From a phage, in NCBI GenBank assembly GCA_012178725.1, contig GCA_012178725.1_3030.1: 64,000 bases of DNA; one strand, written 5' to 3'. Position 1 is the stretch's first letter. Each line of letters begins with the position of its first letter. Below are positions 45,361 through 49,299 of the stretch, in pieces. Under the pieces are notes generated by a model, which worked only from the letters and a program-made list of their open reading frames with translations, made no database searches and was not told the DNA's origin. The position numbers and the translations under genes were made by a program.

Positions 45361-45508
45361 AATTACTGCATGACTGTGATAACTGTCATGATAACACGTT
45401 GAATTCCGAACGCAAGAAGACCTCCTGCTATGGCTGGAACAACGCCTAAACCCGCCAGTAAAATGCTACCAGATACTAATGCAGCGCTTGTAATACCAAT
45501 GAATGGAC
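45361..45508 (-). CDS. small hydrophobic membrane peptide
   Basis: 49 aa ORF by manual translation (MSPFIGITSAALVSGSILLAGLGVVPAIAGGLLAF...) immediately downstream of gene 52. Confidence 0.4.
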
Positions 45509-46837
45509 TCATTTGATTTCCTCTAAATCTTTGGTGTATTCGGTAACTACATCAGTAGTTTTCCAATATTCGTTTTCTTCTTTTTTAGCTTTAGCTTCTT
45601 CAGCAAGTTTCTTTGCTTCATCGGAAGTCATATGAAAAATATTCATTCCAACTAGTTTATCAACATAAGAAGAATACATATCGATTTTCGAAAGTTCTTC
45701 GGTCAGTTCTTTACGAGTTTTACCCTGTACAACAATTTCACCTGAAATTACTTTCTTAATGAAATGTGCCTTGGCAAAGGCTAAACGAAAAGCTGACTCA
45801 GTTTCTTTGATTTTGTTATCAATTCGTTTTTGGACATAAGTTTTACGAACTTCAACAAAGTCTTTAATTAAATCAACTACGTTATCGTAAACTTGTAGTT
45901 TTCCTTTCTCATTAATAACCGTAATATTCTGAGAACGACGCTCAATCAACCCGAAGTCTTTCATAATTTTTGCGTGGCGTTCTTCTTCATTATCGCTCAA
46001 AGAATATTCTTTACGGAATTTAACTTTGAATCCAAAACCGTGCTCACCGCAAGCATCATCCCATGTAATGAAGCCTTTATCTTCAAGTGGGTCTAAAATT
46101 TTACTCACATAAGTTTCACGATCATACTTATACGGAATCTCAGTGATATGCATTTGAGTTCGTGAAGTAAACTTATATGTTCCACGAATTTCATATTGCC
46201 CATCAATTTCAACGACTTCACCACGAAATTCTGGGAATTCTACCTTCGGTTTAGTTACTTTCTTTCCTTGAAGAGCTTGCAGTACAGCTTTCTTAACAGA
46301 AGAAACACTATGAGGAAGAATGTAAGTTGCATAACCAGTTGCAATACCGGAAACACCATTAAGAAGAACAGTAGGAATAATAGGCAAATAGAAAGCAGGC
46401 GGAATGTGTTCTTTATCTTGATGTACCGGAGCATATTCAGTATCTTTATATACGTTATAGAAATTTTTACTTACACGAGCAAAAATATAACGACTTGCTG
46501 CTGCTTTTTGGACGGTACGAGAACCAAAGTTTCCTTGACCATCTAACAGAGGAAAGTTATTATTCCAAGTGTTAGCCATCAAAGCACCTGCGTCTTGCGC
46601 AGAGTTTTCACCATGATGATATCCAAGGTCCGCTACACCGCCTGCGATAGAAGCGAGTTTGTGAAACTTATCTTTATTTCCTCGTGCCAAATCAAGAGCT
46701 CGAGCAATAACAAATCGTTGAACTGGCTTAAATCCATCAATCATATTTGGAATGGCACGATTTTCAACCGTGTACATAGCATAAGCCAATGCTTCATTAT
46801 CAATGATACTTTTTAAATCGCGATTATTCAGTTGCAT
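45509..46837 (-). CDS. 52: DNA topoisomerase II medium subunit (GyrA-like)
   Basis: 442 aa; recognised as T4 gp52. Confidence 0.95.
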   Translation of the reverse strand: MQLNNRDLKSIIDNEALAYAMYTVENRAIPNMIDGFKPVQRFVIARALDLARGNKDKFHKLASIAGGVADLGYHHGENSAQDAGALMANTWNNNFPLLDGQGNFGSRTVQKAAASRYIFARVSKNFYNVYKDTEYAPVHQDKEHIPPAFYLPIIPTVLLNGVSGIATGYATYILPHSVSSVKKAVLQALQGKKVTKPKVEFPEFRGEVVEIDGQYEIRGTYKFTSRTQMHITEIPYKYDRETYVSKILDPLEDKGFITWDDACGEHGFGFKVKFRKEYSLSDNEEERHAKIMKDFGLIERRSQNITVINEKGKLQVYDNVVDLIKDFVEVRKTYVQKRIDNKIKETESAFRLAFAKAHFIKKVISGEIVVQGKTRKELTEELSKIDMYSSYVDKLVGMNIFHMTSDEAKKLAEEAKAKKEENEYWKTTDVVTEYTKDLEEIK

Positions 46838-46838
46838 A

Positions 46839-46982
46839 AATTTACCATACTAGTGAATGTAGTGCCATAATAACATCAGAAATGAAAAGCACGACTTGAA
46901 TTAATCCGAACATTACTCCATAATATAGTGCTACTAATAAAGTAGCAAGGGCTAATGAATAGCCCAAGATTTTCTTAATCAT
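46839..46982 (-). CDS. small hydrophobic membrane peptide
   Basis: 47 aa ORF by manual translation (MIKKILGYSLALATLLVALYYGVMFG...); ATG overlaps ac coding end. Confidence 0.35.
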
Positions 46983-47133
46983 TAGTAGATAACAACACAA
47001 ATGTTAAATATGCACACATACCCTGGGCTAAAGCTTGCGAAAACACGCTGCTGGCATCAATACAGATAGTTAAAACACATGCTACTATCCAACAAATAAA
47101 TGAAATAACTCCTAATAATTTTGCAATATTCAT
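46975..47133 (-). CDS. ac: Ac-like small membrane protein (acriflavine sensitivity)
   Basis: 52 aa hydrophobic ORF by manual translation (MNIAKLLGVISFICWIVACVLTICID...); position between stp and 52. Confidence 0.5.
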   Translation of the reverse strand: MNIAKLLGVISFICWIVACVLTICIDASSVFSQALAQGMCAYLTFVLLSTND

Positions 47134-47140
47134 ATTTTCC

Positions 47141-47221
47141 TCACTGGCGTCCGAAGACGCCTTTAGTTTTAAGATTATTACGATAGAACTGCATCACATG
47201 TTCGTTATGGAAATTACTCAT
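47141..47221 (-). CDS. stp: Stp peptide (26 aa, activator of host PrrC anticodon nuclease)
   Basis: Manual translation gives [26 protein letters not shown], matching the T4 Stp sequence as I recall it; ATG overlaps ndd stop (TAATG). Confidence 0.85.
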
Positions 47222-47679
47222 TAATATGCCTGCAAAACAAATTTAAAGTTATCAGCCAACATACGGTTCATTTCTTCAAGTGTTTGATACTCAGAATGAT
47301 GATTACGAGTAAACGCCAAAGCTAACTGACCTTTACCAAATCCTGTCGTCAGAGGTTTCATCTTAGAAGCAGGCAGATAAAATACTGTGTATGGAACATT
47401 GTTATTTGCAATAGTACGTGCAAGCTGAGACCGACGTTGACGAATATGACTTAGAACTGCACTGAATCCTTGCTTAGAACGCTGATTACCTACATAAAAT
47501 CGTGCAGACACACATGGATTACTAAATGGACGACCATCTAATTTACTTACTAAAAAGTAAAATCCAGGTTTAGATAAAATGTCTTTATGCGGAGTTCCCA
47601 AAAACCATTCACCGCCCTTGATTGTGCCAATAACAGTTGCGCCTGCATTATTCAGATCAGTAACAGTCATGTATTTCAT
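47221..47679 (-). CDS. ndd: Ndd nucleoid disruption protein
   Basis: About 152 aa from [19 protein letters not shown]; recognised as T4 Ndd. Confidence 0.85.
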
Positions 47680-47739
47680 ATTAATTTCCTCTAAATTATT
47701 TTCTACTCCAAGGCCGCATGAATACACGCGGCCATTAAA

Positions 47740-47955
47740 TTAATCGTCGCAGTCGACGCTCAATTCCCAAAACTCTTCTACGGTATAAGTTTCAATATCA
47801 TTTTCAATACAGAAACGTTCATTACTATTGTTTGCTAAAGTAGCGTTAACTGTCATTTTCTCGCTGGTACTCTTAAGAGGTGAAATACGAATTAACTGAT
47901 CACCGTTATCTAAACAAAAAATTTCACCAACTTTTACATCTTTAAAACTTTTCAT
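47740..47955 (-). CDS. hypothetical small protein
   Basis: 71 aa ORF. Confidence 0.45.
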   Translation of the reverse strand: MKSFKDVKVGEIFCLDNGDQLIRISPLKSTSEKMTVNATLANNSNERFCIENDIETYTVEEFWELSVDCDD

Positions 47956-48070
47956 AATTCACCTCAAGGAGTATAAAATCCGAATGCAGTTGTTGACCAT
48001 CCCATCCAGTATGGGAAATTTGCACCAATGTAAAACATAAGAATATAAAACCAACCGCTCAGCAAATTCA

Positions 48071-48289
48071 TCATTTTACACCGTTCCAAATTGTTTCAAC
48101 CACGGATTTTAAGCCATTTTGATGAATGTCCATTCCAACTACCGCCATCAAATAGATTCCAACTACAACTGAACCTAAGGCAAAAATCAGCATGAAAATG
48201 AATAAAGCCGGAAAAATATTATCGAAAAACCATTCAATAAATGTAAAAGCACTGCGTTTACGCTTCATATTTTCCTCACATAAATCCAA
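48071..48289 (-). CDS. small membrane protein (start uncertain)
   Basis: Hydrophobic core FPALFIFMLIFALGSVVVGIYLMAVVG. Confidence 0.4.
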   Translation of the reverse strand: MDLCEENMKRKRSAFTFIEWFFDNIFPALFIFMLIFALGSVVVGIYLMAVVGMDIHQNGLKSVVETIWNGVK

Positions 48290-48389
48290 AGTAAACGTTT
48301 AATACATCAATCATTAAAACGATTGGGAATATACTCAAAACAACTAAAATTATAATTATATTCCATATAGCTTTAATAATCTTTTTCAT
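48276..48389 (-). CDS. small hydrophobic peptide (37 aa)
   Basis: MKKIIKAIWNIIIILVVLSIFPIVLMIDVLNVYFGFM from ATG at 48389 with GGAGGAAC SD. Confidence 0.4.
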   Translation of the reverse strand: MKKIIKAIWNIIIILVVLSIFPIVLMIDVLNVYFGFM

Positions 48390-48413
48390 TTTGTGTTCCT
48401 CCGTGGTTGATAG

Positions 48414-48450
48414 GGTAATAATACCACAGAGGAACAGTCTTGTAAACAAC
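48414..48450 (-). promoter_or_regulatory. T4-type early promoter
   Basis: GTTTAC ... TGTGGTATTATTAC on minus strand. Confidence 0.5.
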
Positions 48451-48693
48451 TTTTTTAAAAATATTCGTAATAAATGTGAATACCAATCACTACTGCCGAA
48501 ACTTGCGCAACCCACCACGCACAAGCAATAAGTACAGAATTAAAAATTTTCATAATAACCTCATCACAAAAGTAAATGTTAAACAAATTACTGGAATACT
48601 AATTAACCAAACAAAACACCACCACAATGAACTCATAGTTCAATCTCAGCGATTTTCATTTTATTCTCCAAATCTGTATCAGTATTTGATAGT

Positions 48694-48728
48694 TGTATAG
48701 TACCACGGTCCTTGTGGTATGTAAACCA
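48694..48728 (-). promoter_or_regulatory. T4-type early promoter (near-copy of motA promoter)
   Basis: GTTTAC ... TGGTACTATACAACT on minus strand. Confidence 0.5.
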
Positions 48729-48741
48729 TTTTGTGAAATTT

Positions 48742-49299
48742 TTAAATGGAAAGATACCATCCATTGTAGTTGCTTTTTCTTACAACCTTACGAAGGTCTT
48801 CTCTATCACCGATGAACTTCGGAGTGTACTGGATGACACCTGGATGAATTTCTTTAGTGTTGAATATAATTATACAGTCCGCGACCTGGTGATTTAGAAT
48901 GGGCCCTAGATTTATTCCAGAACCATATGGATACTCTCCGCTGCATCCTGTTGTTACAGAAATCCAACGTGAGTCAGTTTGATGTGTCTTAACTTCTACA
49001 CGGAGCCCGCAATATTTTGGATGTGCTAAAACATCCCATGCATATGTGTACGGATCATTGACATCTTCTTGGCCTTTATTGACATATCCGCTTAGCCAAT
49101 CTGCTACAAAAAACTCTGCGTACACAGCGATACGGCATCTTTCGATAACTTCTGTCTTATCCTGATTTGGGTTTTGTTTTAAAGAGTATCTTGCAGTATC
49201 AGCAATTTTGACCTTCATTTCACCAGTCAAGTCACTGTTCGATAGGGTAAATGTCGGAATCTGAAATAGTCTCTGTAGCCCCGGATTCGTTTTCTGCAT
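48742..49299 (-). CDS. denB: endonuclease IV (DenB)-like protein
   Basis: 185 aa; position adjacent to rIIB as in T4. Confidence 0.7.
   Translation of the reverse strand: MQKTNPGLQRLFQIPTFTLSNSDLTGEMKVKIADTARYSLKQNPNQDKTEVIERCRIAVYAEFFVADWLSGYVNKGQEDVNDPYTYAWDVLAHPKYCGLRVEVKTHQTDSRWISVTTGCSGEYPYGSGINLGPILNHQVADCIIIFNTKEIHPGVIQYTPKFIGDREDLRKVVRKSNYNGWYLSI

Follow-up and report, generated by a model that had tools for sequence, protein, structure and literature searches.

Two small proteins of the T-even phages, Imm and Sp, reside in the membrane or periplasm, where they act on the host envelope, and are the classical explanation of superinfection exclusion by T4. They have about 83 and 97 amino acids (aa), and their genes lie elsewhere in the T4 genome than those described here. 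In the accessory D region of T4, Ac (51 aa) and gp52.1 (46 aa) each have a single hydrophobic helix, and Ac, annotated both as acridine resistance protein and as predicted membrane protein, has a genetic phenotype. Small regulators of the AcrZ, MgtS, MgrB, KdpF, and CydX type cross the membrane once, have 30-65 aa with almost no soluble domain, and bind larger membrane proteins. Holins, antiholins, and type I toxins (Hok, Ldr, Ibs, TisB) are also short and hydrophobic, and target the inner membrane. Finally, T4 carries a string of genes named ndd.1 to ndd.6, whose RNAs are all classed as early. A review that lists these six genes assigns no function to them.

We analyzed the corresponding locus in a 64,000-nucleotide stretch of phage DNA (contig GCA_012178725.1_3030.1; hereafter the window). 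The window comes from a T4-like phage (Tequatrovirus), and the region is 99.9% identical to phage Maryam and about 96% identical to T4. The minus strand between positions 47740 and 48660 encodes ndd.6 (28 aa), ndd.5 (32), ndd.4 (37), a gene of the DUF7248 family (65), ndd.2 (36), and ndd.1 (71). These ORFs correspond one-to-one to the T4 and Maryam annotations ndd.1-ndd.6, on the same strand and in the same order, between ndd and denB. The gene order is identical in 19 Tequatrovirus sequences, and the synteny with ndd, denB, rIIB, and gene 52 is stable across genera. The string of tiny hydrophobic ORFs is the T4-like ndd.1-ndd.6 cluster, previously annotated, non-essential, and uncharacterized. 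In particular, ndd.2-ndd.6 are no new observation, since their T4 annotation is decades old and each has a PHROG family (E-values of 1.6e-17 to 3.4e-30, over the whole peptides). Neighbors on the same strand include the small hydrophobic ORFs 52.1 and ac, given as predicted membrane proteins in the T4 annotation, and the nearby rIIB is annotated as a membrane-integrity protector. The features of the locus are as follows.

48697..48725, minus strand (48725->48697): early-type promoter P1; TTTACA, 17 nt ending in TGG, then TACTAT, with an A-tract ahead.
48633..48659, minus strand: 8-codon ORF (MKIAEIEL) with a strong Shine-Dalgarno site (GGAG); stop codon in an ATGA overlap with the start of ndd.6.
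48550..48636, minus strand: ndd.6 homologue, 28 aa, MSSLWWCFVWLISIPVICLTFTFVMRLL; PHROG 8851, E 1.6e-17.
48455..48553, minus strand: ndd.5 homologue, 32 aa, MKIFNSVLIACAWWVAQVSAVVIGIHIYYEYF; PHROG 5011, E 9e-26.
48418..48446, minus strand (48446->48418): early-type promoter P2; TTTACA, 17 nt ending in TGG, then TATTAT, with AAAAAA ahead.
48276..48389, minus strand: ndd.4 homologue, 37 aa, MKKIIKAIWNIIIILVVLSIFPIVLMIDVLNVYFGFM; PHROG 3098, E 2.4e-20; strong Shine-Dalgarno site (GGAGG).
48071..48268, minus strand: DUF7248 gene, 65 aa; PF23906, E 4.4e-20; PHROG 2401.
47964..48074, minus strand: ndd.2 homologue, 36 aa, MMNLLSGWFYILMFYIGANFPYWMGWSTTAFGFYTP; PHROG 4135, E 1.7e-24.
47740..47955, minus strand: ndd.1 homologue, 71 aa; PHROG 2183, E 2.9e-37.
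47712..47733, minus strand: GC-rich hairpin GGCCGCGTGTATTCATGCGGCC between ndd.1 and ndd, at the downstream boundary of the cluster.

An earlier, sequence-only reading of this DNA had listed consecutive, overlapping minus-strand ORFs of about 8, 28, 32, 37, and 64-72 aa, and all of them exist, the last having 65 aa from its ATG or 72 aa from an upstream TTG. The term overlapping holds for three junctions, where stop and start share ATGA (the 8/28, 28/32, and 65/36 aa ORFs); the remaining junctions are gaps of 65, 7, and 8 nt. Every start has either a Shine-Dalgarno site or an ATGA overlap. Two more ORFs in the same span, of 36 aa (47964-48074) and 71 aa (47740-47955), were not quoted in that reading.

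The 8-codon ORF was also part of the original list of peptides, and there we disagree. Most relatives have at this position an 87-aa ORF (MKFKFYY...NSNEMKIAEIEL), of which only MK and IAEIEL are left in the window, Maryam, and T4. The 8-codon ORF is the relic of an in-frame deletion. Its pN/pS of 0.85 indicates no constraint at the peptide level, and we rejected it as a functional peptide gene. Nevertheless, 19/19 sequences have the last 8 codons together with the ATGA overlap, regardless of the upstream DNA, and the ORF has likely been kept as a translational-coupling leader for ndd.6.

In this AT-rich window, 10% of all 25-75-aa ATG ORFs of the six frames reach a Kyte-Doolittle score of 2.0, so that a lone hydrophobic ORF is weak evidence. 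It is conservation that shows these ORFs to be more than chance. They are in frame in 19/19 or 17/19 of the sampled Tequatrovirus relatives; the sequence-only reading had named a lack of in-frame conservation among related phages as evidence against its proposal, and the ORFs withstood this check. For four of the five hydrophobic peptides, tblastn gave matches that were full-length or at least 80% covered in 494-510 records. In five of the six genes pN/pS is 0.08-0.13, against values that mostly reach or exceed 1 when the wrong frames are used, and third-position changes are in excess in the annotated frames. Genes on the antisense strand were considered and rejected, since only the annotated frames give a pN/pS near 0.1 and the antisense open stretches vary between genomes. 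To follow the 28-37-aa peptides across genera, we used loci anchored on Ndd. In other genera of T4-like phages, the interval from denB to ndd contains diverged homologues of four genes, with their motifs, and the families include phages of Escherichia, Pectobacterium, Cronobacter, and others, with Ndd proteins only 46-66% identical. Homologues at 43-61% identity retain length, frame, and motifs. The genes ndd.5, ndd.6, and ndd.2 are patchy among relatives, with an adjoining cassette-like slot, and in three loci that contain Ndd (L040, L047, and L051) one such peptide or none was detected between denB and ndd. In the rest of the window, profile searches found no paralogues of four of the families. 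All this shows real genes that are conserved and under purifying selection, with early promoter motifs and one hydrophobic segment of transmembrane (TM) length each. They are a prime example of phage "dark matter": purifying selection maintains five one-helix peptides in about 500 sequenced T-even-type genomes, four of them recognizable in other genera, with a function unassigned even in the best-studied phage.

The evidence differs in detail from gene to gene. The ndd.6 product (MSSLWWCF...) has one hydrophobic helix of TM length, with two conserved Cys and a conserved Trp and Pro (best 19-residue Kyte-Doolittle window of 2.33). Of the 494 phage records with a full-length tblastn match, 190 are identical; pN/pS is 0.11, and homologues of about 43% identity in JS98-like and other phages have WC.IW...IP.IC..F in common. 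The ndd.5 product (MKIFNSVL...) also has one TM helix; its gene has a GAGG Shine-Dalgarno site and an ATGA overlap with the ndd.6 stop, has full-length matches in 494 records, and shows variable sites at a ratio of 2/1/9 over the three codon positions (pN/pS of 0.10). Among the sampled loci, ndd.5 was found in Tequatrovirus only. The most widespread family of the cluster is ndd.4, present in most of 36 Tevenvirinae loci, including those of Pectobacterium and Cronobacter phages, and intact in 19/19 sequences. Its product (MKKIIKAIWN...) has a basic amphipathic N-terminus, one TM helix (window of 3.08), a conserved Pro, and a conserved Asp past the helix. Within the genus, ndd.4 has a pN/pS of 0.51, with all changes being V/I/A swaps, and no clear third-position excess; its support comes from conservation across genera, including the motif. 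The tblastn search with ndd.4 gave no matches, which we attribute to the low-complexity filter.

The 65-aa protein has a KRKR N-terminus, a long TM helix, and a conserved C-terminal tail (...DIHQNGLKSVVETIWNGVK). It matches PF23906 with 71.9 bits, for a cut-off of 27, and its gene is at least 80% covered in 497 records, with variable sites of 6/2/21 by codon position and a pN/pS of 0.08. Across genera, the TM segment is variable and the C-terminal motif GLKSVVE.IWNG is conserved. The AlphaFold2 (AF2) model has two helices in a helix-kink-helix arrangement (mean pLDDT of 79); as it consists of helices only, a fold search would be without meaning. An all-against-all HMMER comparison with this protein as query retrieved three related small proteins (76, 62, and 25 aa), the other matches being weak, to much larger proteins, and read as compositional. 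The family is therefore narrow. The ndd.2 product is aromatic-rich (33%), hydrophobic, and uncharged, and its start codon shares ATGA with the stop codon of the 65-aa gene. Matches covering at least 80% of it occur in 510 records, some of them from Klebsiella phages at less than 60% identity; it has a pN/pS of 0.13 and carries the cross-genus motif G.N.PYWLG. A 13-nt deletion disrupts it in JEP6 and SP21535. Ndd.1, the product of the final gene of the string before ndd, is soluble and acidic rather than a membrane peptide (pN/pS of 0.10), and its AF2 model is unreliable (pLDDT of 43).

The two early promoters proposed from the sequence were both recovered, at 48725->48697 and 48446->48418. They have in common GTTTACA, 17 nt, TGG, and TAyTAT, and their -35, TGn, and -10 elements are kept in 19/19 Tequatrovirus sequences. 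P1 overlaps the 3' end of denB and would drive the 8-codon leader, ndd.6, and ndd.5; it scores 9/12 with TG in a consensus scan. The early promoters of T4 were described as "UP/-35/TGn/-10" (PMC2988021), and P1 fits this description. P2 scores 10/12 with TG and would drive ndd.4 and the later genes. Its sequence matches further sites in T4-type genomes, as expected of a repeated promoter motif. At the other end of the cluster, the GC-rich hairpin is found in 19/19 relatives, which differ in its loop and inner stem. When a 72-nt segment spanning it is folded for minimum free energy (-19.4 kcal/mol over the full segment), the hairpin is the main stem-loop; it has no U-tract.

The description of the products as single-TM-helix-like microproteins agrees with the best 19-residue Kyte-Doolittle windows, which are 2.2-3.1 for the 28-, 32-, 37-, and 65-aa peptides; the value for the 36-aa ndd.2 peptide is 1.17. 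Basic N-termini support the membrane character, with Ndd.6 and Ndd.2 showing no clear charge bias. From these sequences we infer that the five hydrophobic ORFs are translated and inserted in the membrane with a defined topology, and that they have a target in the envelope. By the positive-inside rule alone, Ndd.4 and the DUF7248 protein would be oriented N-in/C-out, which would place the Asp-containing tail of Ndd.4 and the GLKSVVE.IWNG tail of the DUF7248 protein at the periplasmic face. Early transcription of ndd.2-ndd.6 in this phage is expected from the conserved promoters together with the RNA class of the T4 orthologues. In T4 proteomics, Ndd.1 is the only member of the cluster that was detected, in the early class (PMC9697503 supplement). 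Peptides of such size and hydrophobicity are hard to see by mass spectrometry.

How do these peptides compare with the described systems? Ac (52 aa in the window) and gp52.1 resemble them in strand, region, single hydrophobic helix, and length. In contrast to Ac, the ndd.x peptides have no genetic phenotype, and profile searches in the window detected no sequence relationship to either protein. Imm and Sp are larger and without homology to the ndd.x peptides, whose Pfam and PHROG matches go to unrelated families. The ndd.x peptides match the shape of the AcrZ-type regulators, having a single hydrophobic segment, at most 65 aa, and no soluble domain, but differ from them in being phage-encoded and early-expressed, and have no sequence similarity to them in Pfam or NCBIfam. 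We use these regulators, by analogy, as a working model. A place among holins, antiholins, and spanins is not supported: the promoters are of the early sigma-70 type, the neighbors are denB and ndd, with no endolysin or spanin next to them, and no holin family matched. Type I toxins are not supported either, given the lack of Pfam or NCBIfam matches and of a cis-antisense RNA family. The cluster has no matches in NCBIfam, PADLOC, or Rfam, the Rfam scan of 47100-48900 returning only sub-threshold chance matches, and the literature searched holds no toxicity experiments on the ndd.x peptides.

Genetic screens of T4 show little effect of these genes. All of them are "Not Fit" in CRISPRi-ART and "Non-essential" in HIDEN-SEQ, for which we took the tables of essentiality, delta-rnlA, and RexAB row by row. 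T4 insertions in these genes had no effect with RexAB (log2FC of +0.07 to +0.14, q = 1). The ndd.x genes go unmentioned among the hits reported for DarTG1/2, CBASS, Mokosh, and clinical isolates in the accessible parts of the HIDEN-SEQ source. Hence, the T4 orthologues of ndd.2-ndd.6 are dispensable in the laboratory (K-12) and irrelevant to RexAB. The sole functional lead is the loss of an early stimulation of phosphatidylglycerol synthesis in T4 deletions. The first descriptions of this phenotype date from 1968-69, and its mapping has gone no further than deletions that cover this region. Both sa-delta-9 and rII-delta-DD2, which remove denB and adjacent DNA, abolish the stimulation; these are multi-gene deletions in multiply mutant backgrounds, and denB or another gene could be responsible (PMC6071114).

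On balance, the peptides are probably early inner-membrane microproteins that act on conserved targets in the envelope, tune its physiology through helix or tail contacts, and are encoded by accessory genes. The two strong early promoters would be active within the first minutes of infection, and the short cistrons would rely for translation on Shine-Dalgarno sites of their own or on ATGA termination-reinitiation. In this way, ndd.6 would be coupled to the 8-codon leader, as ndd.2 would be to the 65-aa gene. The five products of 28-65 aa, each essentially one hydrophobic helix, would then insert into the host inner membrane. They are too small for enzymes, and most likely they would act by contacting larger proteins of the envelope, helix to helix or through their tails. 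Their role may be to tune lipid synthesis, permeability, and membrane-bound complexes during early takeover, with nothing essential for replication, and accessory genes of this kind might bring a benefit only on some hosts or in some conditions. The sequence-only reading was partly supported in this respect: interference with host envelope functions, one of its two proposals, can reasonably be inferred from the sequences. If the peptides do tune membrane proteins or lipid synthesis, they could serve as probes or inhibitors of conserved Enterobacterales inner-membrane targets, and an old unassigned T4 phenotype would be explained.

Alternatively, the peptides might form a counter-defense cassette, in which individual members neutralize membrane-anchored systems for abortive infection or exclusion that certain hosts or prophages carry, much as the neighboring rIIA/rIIB do with RexAB. 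We regard this as unlikely. The dispensability of the genes in K-12 would fit, as would the patchy ndd.5, ndd.6, and ndd.2 with their adjoining slot, and the neighborhood is rich in genes that interact with host defense (rIIB, stp). However, the RexAB result is null, the accessible HIDEN-SEQ hits for other systems and clinical isolates do not mention these genes, and PADLOC gave no related similarity. Furthermore, ndd.4 and the DUF7248 gene span host genera, for which a conserved target seems to fit better than a sporadic defense.

It is decidedly unlikely that at least one peptide is itself the early T4 factor that stimulates phosphatidylglycerol synthesis and sustains phospholipid synthesis, acting in the membrane at the CDP-diacylglycerol branch point (e.g., on PgsA or PssA). 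The stimulation depends on a protein that is synthesized in the first 5 min after infection. Two deletions abolish it, sa-delta-9 (from 52.1 to denB, with ndd.1-6 inside) and rII-delta-DD2, which overlaps sa-delta-9 in part, and other large deletions do not (PMC6071114). The peptides are early, of membrane type, and inside the deleted interval, and the conservation of ndd.4 and DUF7248 across hosts is what one would expect of a housekeeping target. Yet the mapping is coarse, since denB, denB.1, ndd, ac, and 52.1 are deleted too, and the strains carry other mutations (PMC6071114). Earlier studies also disagree on the lipid effect, and Pfam and NCBIfam show no homology to regulators of lipid metabolism. 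A bolder version is a "membrane-takeover" toolkit, in which each peptide would act on a different conserved Enterobacterales inner-membrane protein and at least one, most plausibly Ndd.4 or the DUF7248 protein, would be the long-sought early T4 factor that turns phospholipid synthesis toward phosphatidylglycerol; this we hold to be speculative and considerably more apt to fail than to be confirmed.

That the peptides serve the phage's own membrane machinery, by anchoring or organizing Ndd, the rII proteins, or topoisomerase/replication complexes, appears improbable. Such a role would account for the stable synteny with ndd, denB, rIIB, and gene 52, and the T4 annotation has Ndd binding host DNA to the membrane, with gp52 being membrane-associated in RB32. 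The loci L040, L047, and L051, however, have Ndd with one or none of these peptides detected, and T4 growth is unaffected by their individual loss. Superinfection exclusion, the other proposal of the sequence-only reading, in which the peptides would block DNA entry or envelope penetration by later phages, is very improbable. As small early membrane proteins they belong to the general class of Imm and Sp, but Pfam and PHROG show no similarity to either, the literature consulted on D-region deletions reports no such phenotype, and nothing links the cluster to exclusion. Lastly, chance ORFs arising from T-rich codons and seemingly conserved through kinship, or a real gene on the antisense strand, are almost certainly not the explanation: the hydrophobicity shared by a tenth of the small ORFs, the long antisense open stretches, and the lack of mass-spectrometry detection of hydrophobic peptides are outweighed by purifying selection solely in the annotated frames, by Shine-Dalgarno sites and coupled starts with promoters in the same direction, by the diverged homologues of other genera, and by antisense stretches that differ in extent between genomes.

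The comparison with T4 has a practical consequence for the gene models. Functional-genomics screens still work with models that are corrected here, to one 65-aa gene instead of ndd.3 plus ndd.2a and to a 37-aa ndd.4, with the true peptide genes set apart from the 8-codon coupling leader. The T4 peptides Ndd.1-Ndd.6 (AF158101; HM137666) are 90-100% identical to those of the window and have PHROG and Pfam families in common with them. The T4 reference record lacks one G and therefore has two genes, ndd.3 (26 aa) and ndd.2a (40 aa), in place of the 65-aa gene; its ndd.4 begins five codons earlier, at an ATG specific to T4. Intact forms of 65 and 37 aa are found in the window, in T4T, where the 65-aa gene is named "ndd.3", and in two other T4 genomes.

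A 1,061-base query spanning the denB-ndd interval matched 498 phage records, with Escherichia phage vB_EcoM_Maryam 99.9% identical and phage T4 about 96% identical. The T4 annotation of this stretch has matching strand and gene order (denB, ndd.6, ndd.5, ndd.4, ndd.3, ndd.2a, ndd.2, ndd.1, ndd, stp, ac, 52.1, 52), which places the interval in what is classically the non-essential 'D region' of Tequatrovirus genomes. The sequence-only reading had described a string of mini-ORFs here, and the minus strand holds exactly those, with two additional ORFs (ndd.2 and ndd.1) in the same stretch.

Features of the denB-ndd interval (ORFs from ORF reading, promoters from sigma-70 consensus matches)
48725->48697, minus strand: promoter P1, TTTACA, 17 nt, TACTAT, with TGn, after an A-tract
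48633-48659, minus strand: 8-aa ORF MKIAEIEL (the leader)
48550-48636, minus strand: ndd.6, 28 aa, MSSLWWCFVWLISIPVICLTFTFVMRLL
48455-48553, minus strand: ndd.5, 32 aa, MKIFNSVLIACAWWVAQVSAVVIGIHIYYEYF
48446->48418, minus strand: promoter P2, TTTACA, 17 nt, TATTAT, with TGn, after an A-tract
48276-48389, minus strand: ndd.4, 37 aa, MKKIIKAIWNIIIILVVLSIFPIVLMIDVLNVYFGFM
48071-48268, minus strand: 65-aa DUF7248 ORF (72 aa if from an upstream TTG)
47964-48074, minus strand: ndd.2, 36-aa aromatic-rich ORF
47740-47955, minus strand: ndd.1, soluble 71-aa ORF

All starts have a Shine-Dalgarno match (GGAG, GAGG, GGAGG, GAGG, GAGGTG) or an ATGA stop/start overlap, the latter at three junctions (8/28, 28/32 and 65/36 aa). 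As had been proposed, the hydrophobic peptides are each predicted to hold one TM-length segment, and in four of them Kyte-Doolittle scores over 19 residues peak at 2.2-3.1. Hydrophobicity alone is weak evidence, since in this AT-rich window 10% of the 25-75-aa ORFs that start with ATG, taken over all six frames, are equally hydrophobic.

We checked conservation in frame among relatives, on which the sequence-only reading made its claim depend, using the denB-ndd interval of 18 other Tequatrovirus genomes (19 sequences with the window). An intact ORF is kept by every genome for ndd.6, ndd.5, ndd.4 and ndd.1, apart from one IMG/VR contig whose ndd.6 is frameshifted at the 3' end, and by 17 of the 19 for the 65-aa ORF and for ndd.2 alike. 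Codon 45 of the 65-aa gene is a stop in T2 record PV958097. In JEP6 (genome L010) and SP21535 (genome L016), ndd.2 is frameshifted by the loss of 13 nt, and a 24-aa ORF from an internal Met remains; hence, loss of ndd.2 is possible in nature. Variable sites concentrate at third codon positions (first/second/third: ndd.5 2/1/9, 65-aa gene 6/2/21, ndd.2 5/3/15, ndd.1 3/6/20). Pooled pairwise pN/pS is 0.11 for ndd.6, 0.10 for ndd.5, 0.08 for the 65-aa gene, 0.13 for ndd.2 and 0.10 for ndd.1, and mostly at least 1 in the two wrong frames; for ndd.4 it is 0.51, V/I/A swaps accounting for all changes. Synonymous divergence is lower in ndd.6 (pS 0.08) and ndd.4 (0.04) than in their neighbours (0.14-0.21), which may reflect sampling noise over 28-37 codons or additional nucleotide-level constraint. 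By tblastn, ndd.6 and ndd.5 were found at full length in 494 records each, while at least 80% of the 65-aa protein was covered in 497 and of ndd.2 in 510. All six proteins have full-length PHROG family matches, and the 65-aa protein matches Pfam DUF7248 at 72 bits (cut-off 27). This comparative evidence argues that the ORFs of the ndd cluster are genuine accessory protein genes. Genes on the opposite strand were considered; open stretches are present there, but they differ between genomes and lack the coding signatures. Chance ORFs are ruled out by length, frame and motifs kept at 40-60% identity, and by mosaic presence/absence.

The same families of tiny hydrophobic ORFs recur between denB and ndd in 36 IMG/VR loci fetched via an Ndd anchor (Ndd 46-100% identical to that of the window), including Pectobacterium phage PM2, Cronobacter phage Pet-CM3-4 and Escherichia phage EcS1. 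Most loci have Ndd.4, with KK.LKAIWN, a TM segment and then IFP.V.MID. DUF7248, a narrow family by exhaustive HMMER search, has a basic N-terminus and a variable TM segment, and is strongly conserved at its C-terminus, which reads [IV]Q.[DN]GLKSVVE.IWNG. Ndd.2 shows G.N.PYWLG across loci, and Ndd.6 shows WC.IW...IP.IC..F with both cysteines conserved (the JS98 homologue is about 43% identical, counted from the alignment). Among the loci sampled, Ndd.5 is restricted to Tequatrovirus. One member is kept even in a 226-bp denB-ndd interval, and PM2 has ndd.4 only. No paralogues were found elsewhere in the window, and NCBIfam, PADLOC and Rfam searches gave no match.

The denB/ndd.6 slot (48637-48741, minus strand) is a cassette site, with deletion endpoints within short AATGAAA-type repeats. 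Most relatives have an 87-aa ORF there (MKFKFYY...NSNEMKIAEIEL), T2, RB9 and RB32 an unrelated 68-aa ORF (MFTTAELKRAK...), and the window, Maryam and T4 neither. The 8-aa mini-ORF of the sequence-only reading is present, formed by an in-frame join between the two opening codons of the 87-aa ORF and its final six, but shows no constraint on its peptide (pN/pS 0.85). The last eight codons and the ATGA overlap onto ndd.6 are kept in 19/19 sequences regardless of upstream content, and ndd.6 lacks a good Shine-Dalgarno site of its own. On the simplest reading, the leader would be retained because ndd.6 is translated by termination-reinitiation.

Comparison of genomes also corrected gene models. The opening of the 65-codon gene reads ATGAACGT in the T4 reference AF158101.6, and ATGAAGCGT in T4 OZ035787, T4 strain 147, T4T and the window. 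One G is thus absent just after the ATG in AF158101.6, which splits the gene into an out-of-frame 'ndd.3' of 26 aa and a 40-aa 'ndd.2a' that begins at an internal Met; T4T is already annotated with a single 198-nt gene. Recent T4 omics, CRISPRi-ART and HIDEN-SEQ tables retain the split names. The 42-aa ndd.4 start of T4 is a T4-specific ACG-to-ATG change within the Shine-Dalgarno sequence (window 48389-48410, minus strand), and every other genome and the T4T annotation support 37 aa. Natural in-frame TM-TM fusions occur in Shigella phage Sf25 (P0007, ndd.4::DUF7248) and in a T4 variant (P0008, 151,790-bp contig, ndd.5::DUF7248), indicating that the array recombines between TM-coding segments. 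Both arose by natural deletion and join the N-terminal half of Ndd.4 or Ndd.5 to the DUF7248 C-terminal tail.

The two early promoters reported from sequence are both present, with consensus elements and TGn kept in 19/19 sequences, and fit the 'UP/-35/TGn/-10' architecture of T4 early promoters (PMC2988021). T4 ndd.1-ndd.6 RNA is of the early class, and Ndd.1 is the sole product of these genes detected by proteomics (PMC9697503 supplement), the missed detection being unsurprising for hydrophobic peptides of 28-65 aa.

The products of ndd.1-ndd.6 are listed as unknown by Kutter et al. (PMC6071114). In T4, all are 'Not Fit' by CRISPRi-ART (PMC11879866 supplement) and 'Non-essential' by HIDEN-SEQ, with 86-100% of TA sites hit; under RexAB the cluster shows log2 fold changes of +0.07 to +0.14 (q = 1), compared with -8.6 for rIIA and -6.8 for rIIB (bioRxiv 10.1101/2025.11.20.689424 supplement). 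The only functional lead comes from physiology: soon after infection, T4 stimulates the synthesis of phosphatidylglycerol, an effect abolished by the sa-delta-9 deletion (which runs from 52.1 to denB and takes in ndd.1-6) and by rII-delta-DD2, which overlaps it in part, and kept in other large deletions (PMC6071114). Because both deletions also remove denB, and the strains have further mutations, this mapping does not point to the peptides in particular.

The genes are conserved, carry early-type promoters and, in T4, are dispensable in the laboratory, with one TM-length hydrophobic segment each. Superinfection exclusion, suggested by the sequence-only reading, finds no support beyond a class resemblance to Imm and Sp, with no homology in Pfam/PHROG matches. 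We favour conserved targets in the envelope (lipid synthesis, permeability, membrane complexes) rather than sporadic defence systems, because phages that infect different host genera keep Ndd.4 and DUF7248. The peptides would be translated and would insert into the inner membrane, where Ndd.4, with KK..K at its N-terminus, and DUF7248, with KRKR, would lie N-in/C-out, exposing at the periplasmic face the conserved Asp-containing Ndd.4 tail and the conserved GLKSVVE.IWNG helix of DUF7248. The small size of all these peptides excludes an enzyme role, and they would bind larger membrane proteins, by analogy with the bacterial small membrane proteins AcrZ, MgtS and MgrB. Host specificity is possible for Ndd.5, Ndd.6 and Ndd.2, whose distribution is patchier. 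The ndd.2-ndd.6 cluster has long been annotated, and this genome is nearly identical to deposited ones. Of residual interest are the role of the five strongly conserved membrane microproteins, the motifs shared across genera, the putative coupling leader ahead of ndd.6 and a possible link, which can be tested, to the T4 lipid phenotype not yet assigned to a gene.

The small-membrane-peptide theme spans about 3.3 kb of the same strand, including Ac (52 aa, 46975-47133, minus strand), gp52.1 (46 aa, 46842-46982, minus strand), both tiny hydrophobic ORFs, and a 49-aa Gly/Ala-rich hydrophobic ORF whose ATG overlaps the gene 52 stop (45363-45512, minus strand). Among database homologues of Ndd.1 (P0024, P0025, P0030, P0042), many bear 'naphthalene 1,2-dioxygenase', an implausible propagated name for a protein of 71 aa, and others 'outer membrane protein', although Ndd.1 has no hydrophobic segment. 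The AlphaFold model of Ndd.1 is unreliable. Between ndd.1 and ndd, a GC-rich hairpin without a U-tract (GGCCGCGTGTATTCATGCGGCC, 47712-47733, minus strand) is kept in 19/19 relatives, varies in its loop and inner stem, and may serve in RNA stability or processing.
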